Shown: in pieces, positions 2,511-47,764 of the stretch | How the letters are laid out: every line of letters begins with the position of its first letter | How positions within the stretch are numbered: position 1 is the first letter of the stretch | Origin: an uncultured Muribaculaceae bacterium | Lineage (GTDB): Bacteria; Bacillota_I; Bacilli_A; RF39; UBA660 | Reading direction: 5' to 3' | Length of the DNA: 64,000 nt | Assembly (NCBI GenBank): GCA_964422195.1 | Contig: CAYRAF010000001.1 | Location: 946-64,945 of the forward strand | Notes under the pieces: generated by a model | Databases searched by the model: none | What the model saw: only the letters and a program-made list of their open reading frames with translations | Told to the model about the DNA's origin: nothing | Translations under genes and position numbers: made by a program

Positions 2511-3968
2511 CTATTTTTTCTTTTTAAACAACAATGAAATTAAACTTTGCTTTTCCCTAATTAAAGATTCTATATTATAACTTGGATTAATATTCTTATA
2601 AATAGTTTTAGCTAAATCATAAATATTTCCATAAGGATATATCATAAGTTTTTTTCTAATCTTATTAAGTTCAGGATCTATAATTATTAATGGCACTCTT
2701 TGTGATAAATTTAAGAAAACTTCATTGCCATAACCATCATTTATATTTTTTCTAATACCATAAAGTGACGATATAAATAAAGTATAATTACTATCCTTAC
2801 AAAGTCTATACATTTGTGATAAAATATCATCTATTTTAACAAATTCTTCACGTATATCCTTTATAGTATTAAAACTATCAATATTATAATTTAATACTAT
2901 AAGACCATATTTAGGATTATTAATAATATCAAATAACATAGAAGAATTATATAATATTCCTGTACTTGAATCAAAAAAATCAATATTATCACAAACTATA
3001 TTCTTTAATCCAGCACATCTATAATTTATATTACTAAGTCTATTTTTAGAATCAATTATCGCAGCTTTTGTATAAATGTTTTTCAAATAATTATTTACAC
3101 ATATATCTGTTGTTCTATCAGTAAATGCACTTGGTATTTGATATCCAATAGGAAACAAACTATATATATTATACTTAATACTTTCATATCTTCTTCTTAT
3201 TTTTTCAGGTATTTGCGAAAGTTTTTGAATAAACTTTTTTACATTCATATTAGTATAATTAAATATTAAAATATTATCATTATCAGCAATCTCATATCTT
3301 GTATTTATACAAAAAGTTTTTATATCACATGGCAATGTATTATTAGCAATTAGATTATTTATCTTTTGATCTGTCTCTCTCCATAACTCACTATAACCAT
3401 AAAATAACGAAGTAACATAATCATCTATTTTACTATCATCAGCTTCATCTGATATATAATTCATACCTACTACACTCGCTACTCTTAGCTTAGGAACAAA
3501 CCCATAACCAAACTTAGTAATTACACCTTTTAGTTCTTTATAATCTTTTATATTATCTGAAGTACAAACTAAATGAACATAAGCTTCTTTAACATTAATA
3601 TCCGCTATATTCTCCATAAAGTTTCTCAAATTATCTAACTCTTTTTCAGTATTAACAAAGTATATTACATGAAGCTTAGATTCAGGATTATTTATCTTAG
3701 CTTTAAACTGTAATAATTCATTATTACCAACTATTTTCTTATCTACGCTCTCATTCTTAATAAAACTATAATTTAAACTACCATCAGATCCTAAACTAAA
3801 ACTATTATAACCATCCATATAATTTAAAGCACTACAATCTAATTGAGTAGAAATATTATGTTTTAAATACATATCAAAATTAGGAGATAAATCTTCATTA
3901 TAAAGACTATATGAACCTTTTTGTTCATAGGCATAACCATTAATTAAAAACAAAACACTTTTCTTCAT
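2511..3968 (-). CDS. Hypothetical 485-aa protein, possibly alkaline-phosphatase-superfamily/iPGM-like
   Basis: Long ORF with a good coding signal. The N-terminus (MKKSVLFLINGYAY) is reminiscent of the iPGM start, but no catalytic motifs could be confirmed. Confidence 0.35.
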   Translation of the reverse strand: MKKSVLFLINGYAYEQKGSYSLYNEDLSPNFDMYLKHNISTQLDCSALNYMDGYNSFSLGSDGSLNYSFIKNESVDKKIVGNNELLQFKAKINNPESKLHVIYFVNTEKELDNLRNFMENIADINVKEAYVHLVCTSDNIKDYKELKGVITKFGYGFVPKLRVASVVGMNYISDEADDSKIDDYVTSLFYGYSELWRETDQKINNLIANNTLPCDIKTFCINTRYEIADNDNILIFNYTNMNVKKFIQKLSQIPEKIRRRYESIKYNIYSLFPIGYQIPSAFTDRTTDICVNNYLKNIYTKAAIIDSKNRLSNINYRCAGLKNIVCDNIDFFDSSTGILYNSSMLFDIINNPKYGLIVLNYNIDSFNTIKDIREEFVKIDDILSQMYRLCKDSNYTLFISSLYGIRKNINDGYGNEVFLNLSQRVPLIIIDPELNKIRKKLMIYPYGNIYDLAKTIYKNINPSYNIESLIREKQSLISLLFKKKK

Positions 3969-15449: not shown

Positions 15450-15489
15450 ATTATCTCCTATATCCTCTTATCAATATCTTAGTATTTTT

Positions 15490-15930
15490 CTATTTTGTTT
15501 TGTAATTTTTTAAAAATACTTCTAATTGTTCTTTATTATCAAAAATATCTTCAAAAATATTATACAATGTATCGGTAGTTTCATATTCACCTATTGCATA
15601 GCATTTTTTCCCTAATCCATAGGCTATCCCTGATTCAATATGCGCAGCTTTTCCTGCAGGTAAAACTAATAATAAATTCCTAGAACTTTTCTCTCCCTCT
15701 AAATCATCATGAAAAAGATTCAATACAATATCACTTTTTAACCCTAATGATTCAAATTCCTGCTGTCTTTCTTCTGGTGTTTGATCTTTATTACCATATC
15801 CCCAATTATCCTCATTTTTTAAAAAGCAATAATAAGAAATACTATATTTATCAAACATATCACAAATTCTTAATATATTATCTTTATTTCTTGCTCTACC
15901 TGCAATAAAAAATTCATATTTAATATCCAT
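15490..15930 (-). CDS. Nucleoside 2-deoxyribosyltransferase-like protein
   Basis: N-terminal FFIAGRAR and C-terminal HIESGIAYGLGKKCY resemble the DRTase-fold motifs (AGP...E.G.A.GKP). Confidence 0.5.
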   Translation of the reverse strand: MDIKYEFFIAGRARNKDNILRICDMFDKYSISYYCFLKNEDNWGYGNKDQTPEERQQEFESLGLKSDIVLNLFHDDLEGEKSSRNLLLVLPAGKAAHIESGIAYGLGKKCYAIGEYETTDTLYNIFEDIFDNKEQLEVFLKNYKTK

Positions 15931-16057
15931 ATTACCAACTCCAATATAATTATATCATATAAATTCTTAATTTGTTCACCTAGCTTGTTCTACTAGCTTA
16001 AGATAAATAAAGGGTTTGTAAAGTTTTGTAGCCTACATAACAGGGTTCCAATGTTCT
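15931..16057 (-). repeat. Leader/promoter module copy A. Contains a GTAGGCTAC palindrome, GCTAG-N2-GAAC direct repeats, an extended -10 TGATATAAT and a GGAG RBS.
   Basis: Near-identical to the copy at 18209-18335 and related to the copy at 17157-17290. Each sits immediately 5' of a minus-strand gene. Confidence 0.6.
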
Positions 16058-16101
16058 TATTGATATCTTAGTAATTTTTTACATATTTTTAAATTATATT
16101 A

Positions 16102-16130
16102 TTGATTACAGAACATTTGTTTGCTATAAT
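16102..16130 (+). promoter_or_regulatory. Sigma-A-type promoter for the small toxin-like mRNA: TTGATT-17 nt-TGcTATAAT
   Basis: Seen in the sequence. The predicted TSS at about 16138 coincides with the start of a 12-nt sequence (GGATACGTTTGA) that is complementary to 16360-16371. Confidence 0.45.
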
Positions 16131-16195
16131 ATATCTTGGATACGTTTGAAATATATCAGATGTTTTCCCTTCTAATTAAGAAGGGAGGTGGTATC

Positions 16196-16285
16196 GTGAC
16201 TAAAAGAGAGAAATCTCTATTTTTCATTATACTCCTTCTATTTATTATAATATTTATACTCTTGTATATTTTATTTTTTAGATAG
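16196..16285 (+). CDS. 29-aa hydrophobic peptide VTKREKSLFFIILLLFIIIFILLYILFFR. Candidate type I toxin.
   Basis: Strong SD AAGGGAGGTG, 5-nt spacer, GTG start. The SD is sequestered by the upstream CCCTTC/GAAGGG hairpin. Single TM helix with a charged N-terminus. Not in the ORF track because it is too short. Confidence 0.45.
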   Translation: MTKREKSLFFIILLLFIIIFILLYILFFR

Positions 16286-16287
16286 AA

Positions 16288-16399
16288 ATTAAAAACATCT
16301 GATTTCAACAATCGTTGACTTCAGATGCTATCCCAAGGGATTACGTCTGATTCGAGCAATCAAACGTATCCTTTTTTATTATATGAAGTTTCCCTCATC
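16288..16399 (-). ncRNA. Putative antisense antitoxin sRNA convergent with the toxin mRNA 3' UTR
   Basis: Minus-strand promoter TTGATA-17 nt-TGaTATAGT (plus coordinates 16435-16407). The minus-strand terminator hairpin CATCTGA...TCAGATG (16296-16327) is followed by a T-run, right next to the toxin stop codon. Overlap with the toxin mRNA is about 90 nt. Confidence 0.3.
16338..16378 (+). terminator. Putative terminator of the toxin mRNA, also the 3' half of the 5'/3' terminal pairing
   Basis: GGAT(T)ACGT...ACGTATCC followed by TTTTTT, seen in the sequence. Confidence 0.35.
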
Positions 16400-16478
16400 T
16401 GTATACACTATATCATAAATTTGAATTTTTATCAAGTTCTATAAACTTCTATCAATATCTTAGTGTTTTTTTATTATT

Positions 16479-17156
16479 TTATTTTTTTAATTTTCTTAGT
16501 GTTAAGACATGCCAGTTTTTCTGTTCTTTTCCACCTTCGTTATGATATTCTTCAATTTCAAATAAATTTTTTCTTAAGTTATCAATATCCTCTTTACTAA
16601 AATAAGCAAAAAATCTTTTTTCTTTTGTTTGTTTATCCTCTAAAATTTTATAATTATATTTAGTTCCATTAGGAAGAATCTCTGCTTCTGGATGAACTTC
16701 TGCGTTTTGAAAATTAATTATTAATAATCCATTATCTGATAATCCATTATATGCTACATCAAACAATTTTTTCATATCATCCATATCCAAATGCGGATTT
16801 CTCCATGATACTATAAGATCTGCTTTAAAAGCAAAAGTATCATCATACTCGTCAGATAAAAAATTATACTTTTTAACTTTTTTAATGCCAATTCTTTCTT
16901 GTTCGTTTAAAAAAGCATCAACAGTGTCCGTAGCTATAACATCATAACCTGCAGATTGAAGCATAAAAGCAAGCTGTCCACAACCACTTCCAAATTCAAT
17001 TATTTTTTTATTCTTATCTTTTTGTAGACCAGCATCTACATAGTTAAATAATCTTTCCCATTTTTCTGTTTCAGGCTCAATTTTATTTTGTTCTATATAT
17101 TCAAGTGCTCCACCAGAATTATACATATTTATAGTTTTTGAATTATGTTGGCTCAT
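16479..17156 (-). CDS. Class I SAM-dependent methyltransferase
   Basis: Motif I IIEFGSGCGQLAF, acidic motif II VIATD. 225 aa. Confidence 0.8.
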   Translation of the reverse strand: MSQHNSKTINMYNSGGALEYIEQNKIEPETEKWERLFNYVDAGLQKDKNKKIIEFGSGCGQLAFMLQSAGYDVIATDTVDAFLNEQERIGIKKVKKYNFLSDEYDDTFAFKADLIVSWRNPHLDMDDMKKLFDVAYNGLSDNGLLIINFQNAEVHPEAEILPNGTKYNYKILEDKQTKEKRFFAYFSKEDIDNLRKNLFEIEEYHNEGGKEQKNWHVLTLRKLKK

Positions 17157-17290
17157 ACAATATACCTCCTATATATGTATATATATAATACCATAGTAAT
17201 TGCTACTTTGTCACCTAGCTGGTTCTATTAGTCTAAAATAGATAAAGGTTTTGTGAAGTTCTGTAGCCTACGGCCTCTAAAAAGTGTATA
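17157..17290 (-). repeat. Leader/promoter module copy B (diverged), with GTAGGCTAC
   Basis: Shares the GTAGGCTACAGAACTTCACAAAACCTTTATCTATTTTAGACTAATAGAACCAGCTAGGTGA core (minus sense) with copies A and C. Confidence 0.5.
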
Positions 17291-17309
17291 TTTTTAATAT
17301 TTAGGCATA

Positions 17310-17334
17310 GAAAAAAGCCCGCAAATACGGACTT
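17310..17334 (-). terminator. Rho-independent terminator. A paralogous copy of the rpsI terminator, preceded by a duplicated rpsI 3'-end fragment.
   Basis: Minus strand GTCCGTATTTGCGGGC + T6. The upstream 21 nt (AATTTAGTAAGAGATAGGAAA) are identical to the last codons and stop of rpsI. Confidence 0.5.
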
Positions 17335-17464
17335 TCCAAAAGCTTTCCTATCTCTTACTAAATTAGCGTCACTTTATTTATGCGAGTTTACGGACATTTT
17401 GTAGCCTACTCGTAGCCTATTCTTAGTAGTACCTTAGTAATTTTCTTCTTTTCTATATATATTA

Positions 17465-18208
17465 TTAATATCCTCCATCAATTACCAATATTTCACTATT
17501 AACATAGCTTGATTCATCACTTGATAAATAATAAATTGTTTTTGCAATTTCTTCTGGTTTAGCAAATCTTTCTAAATATATTTTAGCATTTTCATCATCT
17601 ATATATTCTTGCGGCAATTCTTTATTCATATCAGTATCTGCCCAACCAATTGCAACTGCATTTACTCTAATGTTTGGCTTAAACTGATATGATAAATCTC
17701 TAGTAAGACTCTGTAATCCTATTTTAGAGACATTGTAATCTAAACATTCAGGAGAAATAGTTTTTGTACCATTGGTAGATGAGACATTTACTATAGTACT
17801 ACCCTTTTTCATATATTTTGAAGCCTCTCTTGAAACAATGAAGGCACCAATTACATTTACTTCTAATGTTCTTTTAAACTCCTCAACAGTAATACTTTCA
17901 AAATCTCTATCAAATACAATTCCTGCATTATTAACTACAGCATCAATTCTACCAAATACATTTATTATTTGCTCAATCATATTTTTTACTTCTAATTCGT
18001 TAGACACGTCAGCTTTAATTGCTAATGCTTTATTGTTAAATTCTTTTTCAACATATTCTTTCAATTCATCTGCAGCACTTGCAATTTTATTATAATTAAT
18101 AACGACATTATAGCCTTCTGAAGCAAACTTAATTATAGTAGCTTTGCCTATTCCTCTAGCACTACCAGTTACTAAAACAACTTTTTTATCCATTATTATC
18201 AACTCCAA
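17465..18208 (-). CDS. Short-chain dehydrogenase/reductase (SDR, FabG-like)
   Basis: TGSARGIGKA cofactor motif, NAG, YNVSK catalytic motif. Confidence 0.8.
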   Translation of the reverse strand: MELIIMDKKVVLVTGSARGIGKATIIKFASEGYNVVINYNKIASAADELKEYVEKEFNNKALAIKADVSNELEVKNMIEQIINVFGRIDAVVNNAGIVFDRDFESITVEEFKRTLEVNVIGAFIVSREASKYMKKGSTIVNVSSTNGTKTISPECLDYNVSKIGLQSLTRDLSYQFKPNIRVNAVAIGWADTDMNKELPQEYIDDENAKIYLERFAKPEEIAKTIYYLSSDESSYVNSEILVIDGGY

Positions 18209-18335
18209 TATAATTATATCATAAAAATTCTTAATTTGTTCAACTAGCTTGTTCTACTAGCTTAAGGTAAATAGAGGTTTCCCGAAGACTTTGTAGCCTA
18301 CCTGTAGCCTACTCGTAGCCTACGACGCTAGAAAC
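18209..18335 (-). repeat. Leader/promoter module copy C, with three tandem 11-bp-period GTAGGCTAC palindromes (18293, 18304, 18315)
   Basis: Seen in the sequence. About 90% identical to copy A over roughly 75 nt, including the extended -10 TGATATAAT and the RBS. Confidence 0.6.
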
Positions 18336-47423: not shown

Positions 47424-47764
47424 GGGGATGTAATGGTTTCGACGGGAATATTTGAGCTTAAGTAGCAAGTCGTAAGTTATACGTTACATACAAATTTAAA
47501 ATATCTGGAAACAGAAACGAATTAGCTTTCGCCTAAGTTTAGAAAGCACTACTATACTCTGATATCTACTAAGAGATATAGTGGTTCATTTTTGTAGGTT
47601 ATACTATTTAAGTGTCTATATTAAATAGCGAACTTTTATAGACTAGCTATAATGTTACTTGTTAGTTTGTTTACGTTATAGCAAATCTTTTAAACTAACT
47701 AAGCTTGTAGAAGCTTTTGTGTTAATATTTTCGGACAGCGGTTCAATTCCGCTCATCTCCACCA
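47424..47764 (+). ncRNA. ssrA: tmRNA (SsrA)
   Basis: 5' GGGGATGTAATGGTTTCGACGGG and 3' GGACAGCGGTTCAATTCCGCTCATCTCCACCA. TGcTATAAT promoter at 47406-47414. Predicted tag frame GGA...GCC TAA (47508-47537) encodes (A)GNRNELAFA. Confidence 0.85.

Follow-up and report, generated by a model that had tools for sequence, protein, structure and literature searches.

Toxin-antitoxin (TA) systems of type I have been described from only three phyla and in a few dozen families (PMC12390103, PMC8594479). Their peptides evolve fast, and so do their RNAs, which makes such systems difficult to detect; T1TAdb covers only genomes that were already reported in the literature (PMC8594479). Gram-positive families have 3′-overlapping antisense RNAs, and tandem repeats are a type I trait (PMC8594479); the txpA/RatA duplex undergoes RNase III-dependent decay (PMC3531473), and SR4 contacts the 3′ part of bsrG through the terminator loop (PMC3834814). 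The aapA3 and hok systems have a 5′-3′ long-distance interaction and metastable hairpins (PMC6733600). Here, we analyzed in silico a window of 64,000 nucleotides (nt) of contig CAYRAF010000001.1 (GCA_964422195.1), whose positions serve as coordinates throughout. An initial annotation, made from the sequence alone, had proposed that this window holds a type I TA-like module encoding a hydrophobic peptide of 29 amino acids (aa). Our analysis indicates that the locus is probably a type I TA module of a kind present in one to several copies per genome in uncultured low-GC Bacilli. As modelled, it is most probably intact and about 340 bp long, with a tiny membrane-peptide gene on a folded mRNA and a facing gene for a small antisense RNA.

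Resemblance to described type I systems

The five sequence features on which the initial annotation was based were all present (Table 1). An nhmmer profile of genome copies placed exactly one copy of the module in the window, at 16100-16438, and no paralogue was found within the window. The predicted mRNA (241 nt) falls within the 150-400 nt of the type I class, the hydrophobic peptide (29 aa) lies below its limit of about 60 aa, and a putative cis-antisense gene has its own promoter and terminator and about 89 nt of complementarity to the mRNA. Several known type I toxins are about 29 aa long. The initial annotation had called the peptide far shorter than typical; this length is not unusual, and the literature gives only an upper bound for type I toxins, 'typically under 60 aa' (PMC11264685).

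Like bsrG/SR4 and txpA/RatA (and also bsrE/SR5 and yonT/SR6) of Bacillus subtilis, the module consists of convergent genes with an antisense RNA over the 3′ part of the toxin mRNA (PMC8594479), and its presumed toxin is small and hydrophobic. As in bsrG/SR4, the predicted antisense RNA is a chain of stem-loops in which the terminator loop can make the first contact, and the Shine-Dalgarno (SD) sequence lies within a double-stranded region, as it does in bsrG (PMC3834814). The long duplex would be expected to be an RNase III substrate, like that of txpA/RatA (PMC3531473). However, in the TxpA and BsrG families the overlap includes the end of the open reading frame (ORF) (PMC8594479), whereas here it is confined to the 3′ untranslated region (UTR), the U-run of the antisense RNA (16295-16291) lying downstream of the toxin stop codon (16283-16285). 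The module shows no peptide similarity to TxpA/RatA or BsrG/SR4 and matches no Rfam antitoxin model, Pfam model or NCBIfam model. Its peptide (25-29 aa in the family) has a charged N-terminus and not the charged C-terminal tail of the B. subtilis type I toxins. To our knowledge, a 12-bp clamp joining the 5′ end to the 3′ end combined with a double strand exchange has not been described for the B. subtilis type I systems.

A conserved and covarying long-distance closure of the mRNA from 5′ to 3′ is shared with aapA/IsoA of Helicobacter and hok/Sok of enterobacterial plasmids, as is the occurrence as a multi-copy chromosomal family. In aapA and hok, transient local hairpins form first and are later replaced by a more stable long-range fold (PMC6733600), and the same order would hold here. 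In those systems the long-range fold governs access to the SD, and the antisense RNA acts on the 5′ part or the ORF (PMC6733600, PMC8594479); here, in contrast, the SD is occluded locally and without dependence on the clamp in our models, the antisense RNA is placed at the 3′ end, and it competes with the clamp for the same 3′ UTR sites. The hosts also belong to a different phylum, and the peptide has neither homology to those toxins nor a match to the Hok profile. As in the module, the 5′ end of the Fst mRNA is sequestered by a 5′ helix, and a stem-loop covers its SD. A host in the Firmicutes, convergent transcripts with a common terminator region and a peptide of about 30 aa are further features that the module shares with Fst/RNAII (par of pAD1 and its chromosomal homologues; layout: PMC8594479). 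However, Fst and RNAII pair via complementary repeats outside the overlap (PMC8594479), and the module has no such repeats; unlike Fst/RNAII, it has an overlap of about 89 nt with two hairpins, and its peptide has no match to the Fst profile or to any Pfam toxin model. The module, which would work like a type I TA system, is therefore best filed as a new family in the class, one that combines the Bacillus-type layout with 3′ antisense RNA and a 5′-3′ closure like that of hok and aapA. With this combined layout, the role of such closures becomes directly testable, that is, whether they serve ribosome access or antitoxin access or stability.

Table 1. Positions of the predicted features of the module in the window (SL, stem-loop; MFE, minimum free energy).
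Feature	Position	Strand	Details
Toxin promoter	16102-16130	+	-35 TTGATT 16102-16107; 17-nt spacer; extended -10 TGcTATAAT 16122-16130
Predicted toxin transcript start	16138	+	G
Predicted toxin mRNA	16138-16378	+	about 241 nt: 5′ UTR, ORF, 3′ UTR, terminator
Clamp, 5′ strand	16138-16149	+	GGAUACGUUUGA; partner 16360-16371
5′ UTR segment a	16155-16165	+	AUCAGAUGUUU; partner 3′ UTR segment b, 16293-16303 (closed fold, MFE)
SD-sequestering hairpin	16167-16185	+	anti-SD CCCUUC 16167-16172; loop; GAAGGG 16180-16185
Extended SD	16180-16192	+	GAAGGGAGGUGGU; 3-5 nt before the start codon
Toxin-like ORF	16196-16285	+	GTG start, 29 codons and TAG; stop codon 16283-16285
Antisense terminator hairpin	16296-16327	-	CAUCUGA..UCAAC/GUUGA..UCAGAUG, then - strand U-run 16295-16291
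Local b:c hairpin of toxin 3′ UTR	16296-16327	+	same stretch read on the + strand
c:d helix	16321-16350	+	closed fold; UCAGAUG 16321-16327 with CGUCUGA 16344-16350, enclosing CC/GG
Toxin mRNA intrinsic terminator (d:e)	16338-16377	+	bulged hairpin GGATTACGTCTGATT 16338-16352 / AATCAAACGTATCC 16358-16371, T6 16372-16377; complement is antisense SL2; 3′ arm is also the clamp 3′ strand
Predicted antisense (antitoxin) RNA	16289-16400	-	about 112 nt: SL1, A-rich linker, SL2, SL3/terminator
Antisense 5′ stem-loop SL1	16383-16398	-	AUGAGG-GAAA-CUUCAU; outside the toxin mRNA
Antisense promoter	16407-16435	-	-35 TTGATA 16435-16430; 17-nt spacer; extended -10 TGaTATAGT 16415-16407

Distribution of the family and its peptide gene

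The first relative, P0001, was an unnamed 48-aa ORF from a JGI metagenome, which was found with an upstream-extended 49-aa frame of the window as the query. Its locus (L002) shares the whole module with the window at the DNA level and folds with z = -10.7; its flanks differ, and dnaJ adjoins it. A scan of species-representative genomes with a 21-mer from the 5′ UTR gave 22 stretches, of which 21 were real copies from 16 species-level metagenome-assembled genomes (MAGs); a stretch from Bacteroidia (L004, 37% GC) was a chance match to the 21-mer with no element present. The host MAGs came from rumen, sheep ileum, rabbit gut and Hadza gut, and their records are labelled uncultured Erysipelotrichaceae, Bacilli or Tenericutes. 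In metagenomes, 106 stretches carried the 3′ UTR anchor used as the second search pattern. With the genome-copy profile, nhmmer gave 129 matches in the fetched loci, 74 of them full length and 72 distinct. These 72 distinct full-length copies form alignment A3, to which the family counts below refer, and set a lower bound on family size (at least 72). Both the ORF and the structure recur in them, and each element of the type I architecture proposed in the initial annotation is conserved, and subject to selection, in these at least 72 related copies.

Several MAGs carry 2-3 copies, head-to-tail tandem pairs are common, and the copies sit in unrelated genomic contexts. Conservation starts at the -35 of the + promoter and ends at the -35 of the - promoter, with unrelated flanks on either side, so that the unit under selection would be two convergent transcription units. 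Several independent assemblies break off within the element, in or close to its 3′ UTR (L003, L008, L010 and L001, the last at window position 16370); such breaks are consistent with a multi-copy repeat in those genomes, and the element would account for assembly breaks in these MAGs. When L101:5854-6776 was compared with window 15466-16438, the module lay on the opposite side of the homologue of a 146-aa gene, with a flank 95% identical, which indicates that the module was relocated locally between close relatives. Three element-bearing contigs with 24-27% GC, like other hosts, are in MAGs labelled Muribaculaceae (L007, L009 and L023); their place in Bacteroidota MAGs is probably due to mis-binning. 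A diverged sister subfamily, often adjoining a main-type copy, was also observed (L007:679-905, L036:344-569, L096:3676-3905 and L082:3536-3762). It shares the architecture, clamp (GGAACAUUUAAU/AUUAAAUGUUCC), SD and 3′ hairpin included, and its peptides differ (for example, MMKFKTFILKVLKSISIILLLSTLMVLAIKK and MFKKDLIIFSLFMLVFLLVLLLFIVLI).

No described family was found to cover the module. A scan of the whole window at Rfam gathering level found tmRNA alone, and when both strands of 15900-16600 were searched permissively with cmscan (E up to 10), the only matches were two chance eukaryotic ones. For the peptide, hmmscan against Pfam and NCBIfam (E up to 10) returned weak unrelated transmembrane matches only, and no source names the ORF. 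BLAST of the element gave no match in plasmids, and in phages it gave one AT-rich match of 58 nt (E 6e-3) that was judged not meaningful. In viral contigs, two peptide patterns from a two-sequence protein alignment found nothing, and the 3′ anchor matched twice by chance, at an incorrect spacing and without an nhmmer match. A full-text literature search yielded no paper tying type I TA systems to Erysipelotrichaceae and nothing relevant for Mollicutes. The suggestion in the initial annotation that the family might be undescribed thus held: to judge from these comparisons, it is new within the type I TA class, and it adds a well-supported family in uncultured, small-genome, low-GC Bacilli of gut and rumen, where nothing similar is annotated.

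The peptide of the window, (V/M)TKREKSLFFIILLLFIIIFILLYILFFR, has a single hydrophobic helix between a charged N-terminus and a basic C-terminus, and the GTG-initiated ORF of 29 codons proposed for it is real and conserved. An ORF of 24-29 aa with the consensus MTKRE.S.F.IILLLF.I.I.LLFK/R is kept behind a strong SD in 68/72 copies. The start codons chosen by an ORF picker in 71 copies were ATG (62), GTG (6) and TTG (3), so the GTG of the window copy is a minority start codon. The SD is conserved in the family as GAAGGGAGGTG or GAAAGGTGGTG, and the window has a long version (GAAGGGAGGTGGT, 16180-16192). The ratio of nonsynonymous to synonymous changes (pairwise dN/dS) was 0.21 in the 25-aa class (460 pairs) and 0.29 in the 29-aa class, the two classes being separated by an in-frame 12-nt indel, and the remaining two frames of the ORF region are closed by stops. 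These comparisons indicate that the peptide ORF is under purifying selection.

The same C-terminal peptide turned up in 22 small ORFs (P0001-P0022) when 1.84 billion representative proteins were scanned in full with HMMER. Gene callers either overlook the ORF or, as in these 22, annotate it as a protein of 43-99 aa, with the frame stretched wrongly upstream through the 5′ UTR (for example, MDTFEIYQMFSL...). The corresponding frame in the window (TTG 16136, 16136-16285, 49 aa), an exact look-up of which returned no record, was rejected as a real ORF: no SD precedes it, its start coincides with or lies ahead of the predicted transcript start, and the additional 'residues' are the conserved RNA clamp. 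The longest of the 22, P0017 (99 aa), has an N-terminal CxxC...CxxC zinc-ribbon-like segment and a membrane segment (QTKREKSLFLIILLLFIIVF, E 1.8e-4); the resemblance may be due to chance or to a fusion, or P0017 may be a source of the peptide.

Some copies have lost the peptide. The SD and/or start is lost in L014 (SD and ATG), L120 (SD ruined, ATA for the start) and L022 (ATA). In three 140-nt minis (L087, ~2823-2666; L115, ~3432-3574; L109, ~834-696) the segment from SD to ORF is deleted, joining the 5′ UTR straight to the 3′ UTR, and the antisense half is retained; six internal copies consist of the 3′ UTR/antisense half only (L096:5542-5716, L126, L030, L033, L090 and L116). The antisense half was present in 18/18 untruncated copies found via the 5′ UTR anchor. 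A regular-expression test of start loss against loss of the antisense promoter was too crude to use, since divergent N-termini were miscounted. Toxin-less copies that keep the antisense half fit a harmful ORF, as a TA pair predicts, and constitute circumstantial evidence for one.

A non-toxic small membrane protein tuned by a cis-antisense RNA, that is, a regulated gene and no addiction or defence module, would show the same dN/dS of 0.2-0.3, which suits any functional small protein. No known toxin family matches the peptide, and its toxicity is our inference. We nevertheless consider this explanation unlikely. The copies of the module are multiple, tandem and in unrelated contexts, assemblies break within the element, and several layers of occlusion cover a very strong SD; copies without the ORF or its start retain the antisense gene, and every untruncated copy found by the 5′ anchor has the antisense half. 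Such combined traits are typical of type I TA systems (PMC8594479) and unusual for housekeeping small proteins.

Predicted folds of the mRNA and the antisense RNA

The two promoters facing each other across the module each scored 10/12 with a TG extension in a promoter scan. A single match of this kind is weak evidence because such matches are common in DNA of 26% GC (24 promoter-like sites were found and 17.8 expected). In the family, the + promoter proposed in the initial annotation has the -10 hexamer TATAAT in 56/72 copies and the TG extension in 40/72, at a fixed distance to the conserved 5′ end. The proposed - promoter and the hairpin with U-run that would terminate its transcript are both conserved as well; the -10 of this promoter matches at no fewer than 5/6 positions in 70/72 copies, the TG extension is present in 50/72, and the -35 is conserved as TTGA.

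The predicted toxin mRNA has an MFE of -84.4 kcal/mol compared with -40.6 ± 4.1 kcal/mol for shuffled sequences (z = -10.6; 0/200 shuffles as stable), and both the SD hairpin and the end pairing occur in its MFE fold, as had been anticipated for this check. Its 5′ end (GGATACGTTTGA, 16138-16149) is the exact reverse complement of 16360-16371, and T6 follows the latter. The initial annotation had taken this match for both the pairing of the ends and the terminator; the pairing stood, and the terminator turned out to be a local hairpin instead of the long-range pairing. This bulged hairpin was missed by a simple terminator scan, which found none. In the alignment, the 12-bp clamp was paired in 99.3% of cells, and at 7/12 pairs both partners had changed (CG:50 with UA:17, for instance, or GC:44 with AU:19 and GU:7). 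The clamp was in the MFE fold of 71/72 members, and RNAalifold recovered it independently. Furthermore, diverged sister copies have wholly different yet complementary ends (GGAACAUUUAAU/AUUAAAUGUUCC and GGAACAUUUAGU/ACUAAAUGUUCC).

Two further helices accompany the clamp in what we term the closed fold: a:b was paired in 91.6% of cells, with a CG/UA exchange at one pair, and c:d in 97.3%. For the closed-fold helices, 0/500 shuffles reached the observed values, and slid controls paired in 27-43%. The same 3′ UTR segments can form local hairpins, of which b:c was paired in 96.7% of cells, with double changes at 9/12 pairs, and d:e, the terminator, in 86.4%, with double changes at 8/13 pairs (for example, GC:27/AU:26). 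The closed fold was about 12 kcal/mol more stable than folds with a pair span of at most 60 nt (mean -76.5 vs -64.7 kcal/mol). The terminator hairpin and the clamp are mutually exclusive because the 3′ arm is common to both, and since d:e is the terminator, the local fold has to arise while the mRNA is being transcribed. These models indicate that the mRNA has two mutually exclusive folds, one local and one closed, both of which are conserved.

The 72 natural variants give an unusually clear comparative view of this two-fold mRNA. The strand on which each helix is selected shows in its wobble asymmetry, since a G-U pair becomes an A-C mismatch when the opposite strand is read. On the + strand, the clamp had 35 G-U pairs and 5 A-C mismatches (G-U on the - strand), and c:d had 55 and 5, which marks both as mRNA helices. 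The b:c hairpin, with 4 G-U pairs and 14 A-C mismatches on the + strand, behaved as the terminator of the antisense RNA. The counts for d:e (41 G-U and 49 A-C on the + strand) point to both strands, which fits the + terminator on one strand and SL2 of the antisense RNA on the other.

The predicted antisense RNA folds with -39.7 kcal/mol (z = -6.3; 0/200 shuffles as stable). About 89 nt of the toxin 3′ UTR (16290-16378) are complementary to it, with two stem-loops involved. Its 5′ stem-loop, SL1, lies between the end of the toxin mRNA and the antisense start (~16400) and is not covered by the predicted + transcript. The SL1 stems covary (AUGAAG/CUUCAU in 26 copies, GUGAAG/CUUCAU in 18, AUGCAAG/CUUGCAU in 5, AUGAGA/UCUCAU in 5 and AUGGAA/UUCCAU in 2), and 31 copies have a GAAA loop on the - strand, the only strand on which the loop is of the GNRA type. 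In addition, the - strand of the SL1 region folds better than the + strand in 63/72. These results indicate that the antisense RNA, whose transcript is predicted, is real at the level of selection. Pairing of its non-overlapping 5′ part with nt 1-130 of the mRNA reached -10.2 kcal/mol, and shuffles reached -9.1 kcal/mol; an Fst-like or SprA1-like extra trans complementarity to the translation initiation region, not being above shuffles, was rejected. Contact is therefore expected through the overlap, unlike in Fst/RNAII and SprA1 (PMC8594479). On the - strand, no obvious terminator was seen at 16440-16479, between the end of a 225-aa ORF (stop 16479) and the antisense promoter, and read-through from this gene could thus add antisense transcription across the module.

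The same comparisons bear on whether the module is a non-autonomous mobile element akin to a miniature inverted-repeat transposable element (MITE), with the repeats at 16138-16149 and 16360-16371 as transposase termini and the ORF and 'promoters' as incidental content. Perfect 12-bp inverted repeats about 220 bp apart would suit such an element, as would multiple copies in varied contexts and contigs that end inside it. However, the conserved stretch continues past the repeats, with about 40 bp upstream of them and some 65 bp downstream, and takes in both promoters, so the unit does not terminate at the repeats. Where only one side of a repeat pair has changed, the change nearly always allows G-U pairing on the + strand alone (35 vs 5), which points to constraint at the RNA level and not at the DNA level, and the ORF is selected at the codon level. 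The - strand stem-loop, moreover, is capped by a GNRA loop, and its wobbles suit the - strand. Terminal repeats under DNA-level constraint were not what we found, the substitutions following the wobble rules of + strand RNA, and we rejected this origin as barely credible.

Possible mechanism and neighbouring features

The SD would be hidden locally. As the initial annotation had noted, CCCTTC and GAAGGG can sequester it; this hairpin (16167-16172/16180-16185) covers the 5′ half of the extended SD. It was predicted in nearly all of the 68 members with a locatable start (one fold had a 5-bp stem only), and its stem sequences vary widely among members. In 53/55 MFE folds the SD 8-mer was paired, and the start codon was fully paired in 42. 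Accessibility was then compared by partition function in four modelled states: full-length, with the 3′ UTR blocked (antisense-bound), nascent (without the 3′ UTR) and 3′-trimmed. The idea that the clamp is what hides the SD, in the style of hok or aapA, was rejected, the accessibility being the same in all four; SD occlusion is thus local and constitutive in silico. Any dependence of SD occlusion on long-range pairing, as implied for the locus at the outset, was likewise not borne out in the thermodynamic models.

We propose the following mechanism. The + strand would be transcribed into an mRNA of about 241 nt encoding a 29-aa membrane peptide with a single helix, which would presumably be toxic through membrane damage. 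Translation would be kept low locally, by the anti-SD hairpin over the strong SD and by pairing of the start codon with the first codons of the ORF. While the mRNA is transcribed, its 3′ UTR would form the b:c and d:e hairpins of the local fold; in the closed fold, the 5′ end would pair with the 3′ arm of the terminator, a with b, and c with d. The - strand would give an antisense RNA of about 112 nt, in which a 5′ GNRA-capped stem-loop and an A-rich linker would be followed by two stem-loops of full complementarity to the 3′ UTR. This RNA would kiss the hairpin loops of the open (nascent) mRNA, zip with it into a long duplex and so neutralise the toxin, the duplex being cut by RNase III and the mRNA decaying, by analogy with txpA/RatA and bsrG/SR4. 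The closed fold may be a compact form with both ends protected and the kissing loops hidden, and the antisense RNA would then reach it only poorly.

The two 5′ UTR segments (16138-16149 and 16155-16165) are identical in sequence to two segments of the antisense RNA and address the same two 3′ UTR sites. We tentatively suggest, as a possibility we would not yet favour, that the mRNA carries a mimic of its own antitoxin: in a double strand exchange, an open, antisense-sensitive mRNA would pass into a closed, antisense-resistant reservoir. Refolding like that of hok would then have arisen independently in Gram-positives and would gate antitoxin access and stability, not ribosomes.

The competition between the antisense RNA and the 5′ UTR segments for two 3′ UTR sites, together with the greater stability of the closed fold (by about 12 kcal/mol over the local folds), could also be read the other way, with the antisense RNA as an activator that pairs with the 3′ UTR, displaces the 5′ UTR segments and licenses translation or processing of the peptide mRNA. 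We regard this as very improbable: in the model, neither the SD nor the AUG becomes more accessible with the 3′ UTR blocked, a perfect duplex of 89 bp is a classic RNase III substrate and would lead to decay (PMC3531473), and the retention of the antisense gene in toxin-less copies is a better fit to a protective role.

Several points weigh against the type I TA module and the mechanism proposed for it. Both transcripts and their ends are predictions, a hydrophobic peptide of 25-29 aa need not be toxic, and the presence of RNase III in this genome is an assumption. The accessibility values (SD 0.15-0.17 and AUG 0.09, unchanged across the four states) mean that the models offer no explanation of what turns translation on, or of any block of it by the antisense RNA other than through decay. 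Furthermore, the search patterns fixed parts of a, b and c, so that the high conservation of these segments is partly ascertainment; the patterns left free the clamp's 3′ strand and, in the metagenome copies, the 5′ ends. The shuffle controls for the helices overstate significance because many members are closely related.

Two further features were observed in the window. A tmRNA gene lies at 47424-47764 (+; Rfam RF00023, 150 bits, E 4e-59); no other Rfam family in the window exceeded the gathering threshold. On the - strand, a promoter/leader repeat of about 115 nt occurs at 15924-16036 and 18187-18312 (~89% identity), with a weaker copy at 17263-17364. It precedes the 146-aa ORF (15930) and a 247-aa short-chain dehydrogenase ORF (18208), and the weaker copy precedes the 225-aa ORF, which is methyltransferase-like. 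The repeated leader contains GTAGGCTAC motifs, GCTAGTAGAACAAGCTAG, a -35 TGAACA, TGATATAAT and an SD, and may be a shared operator or regulon signal.

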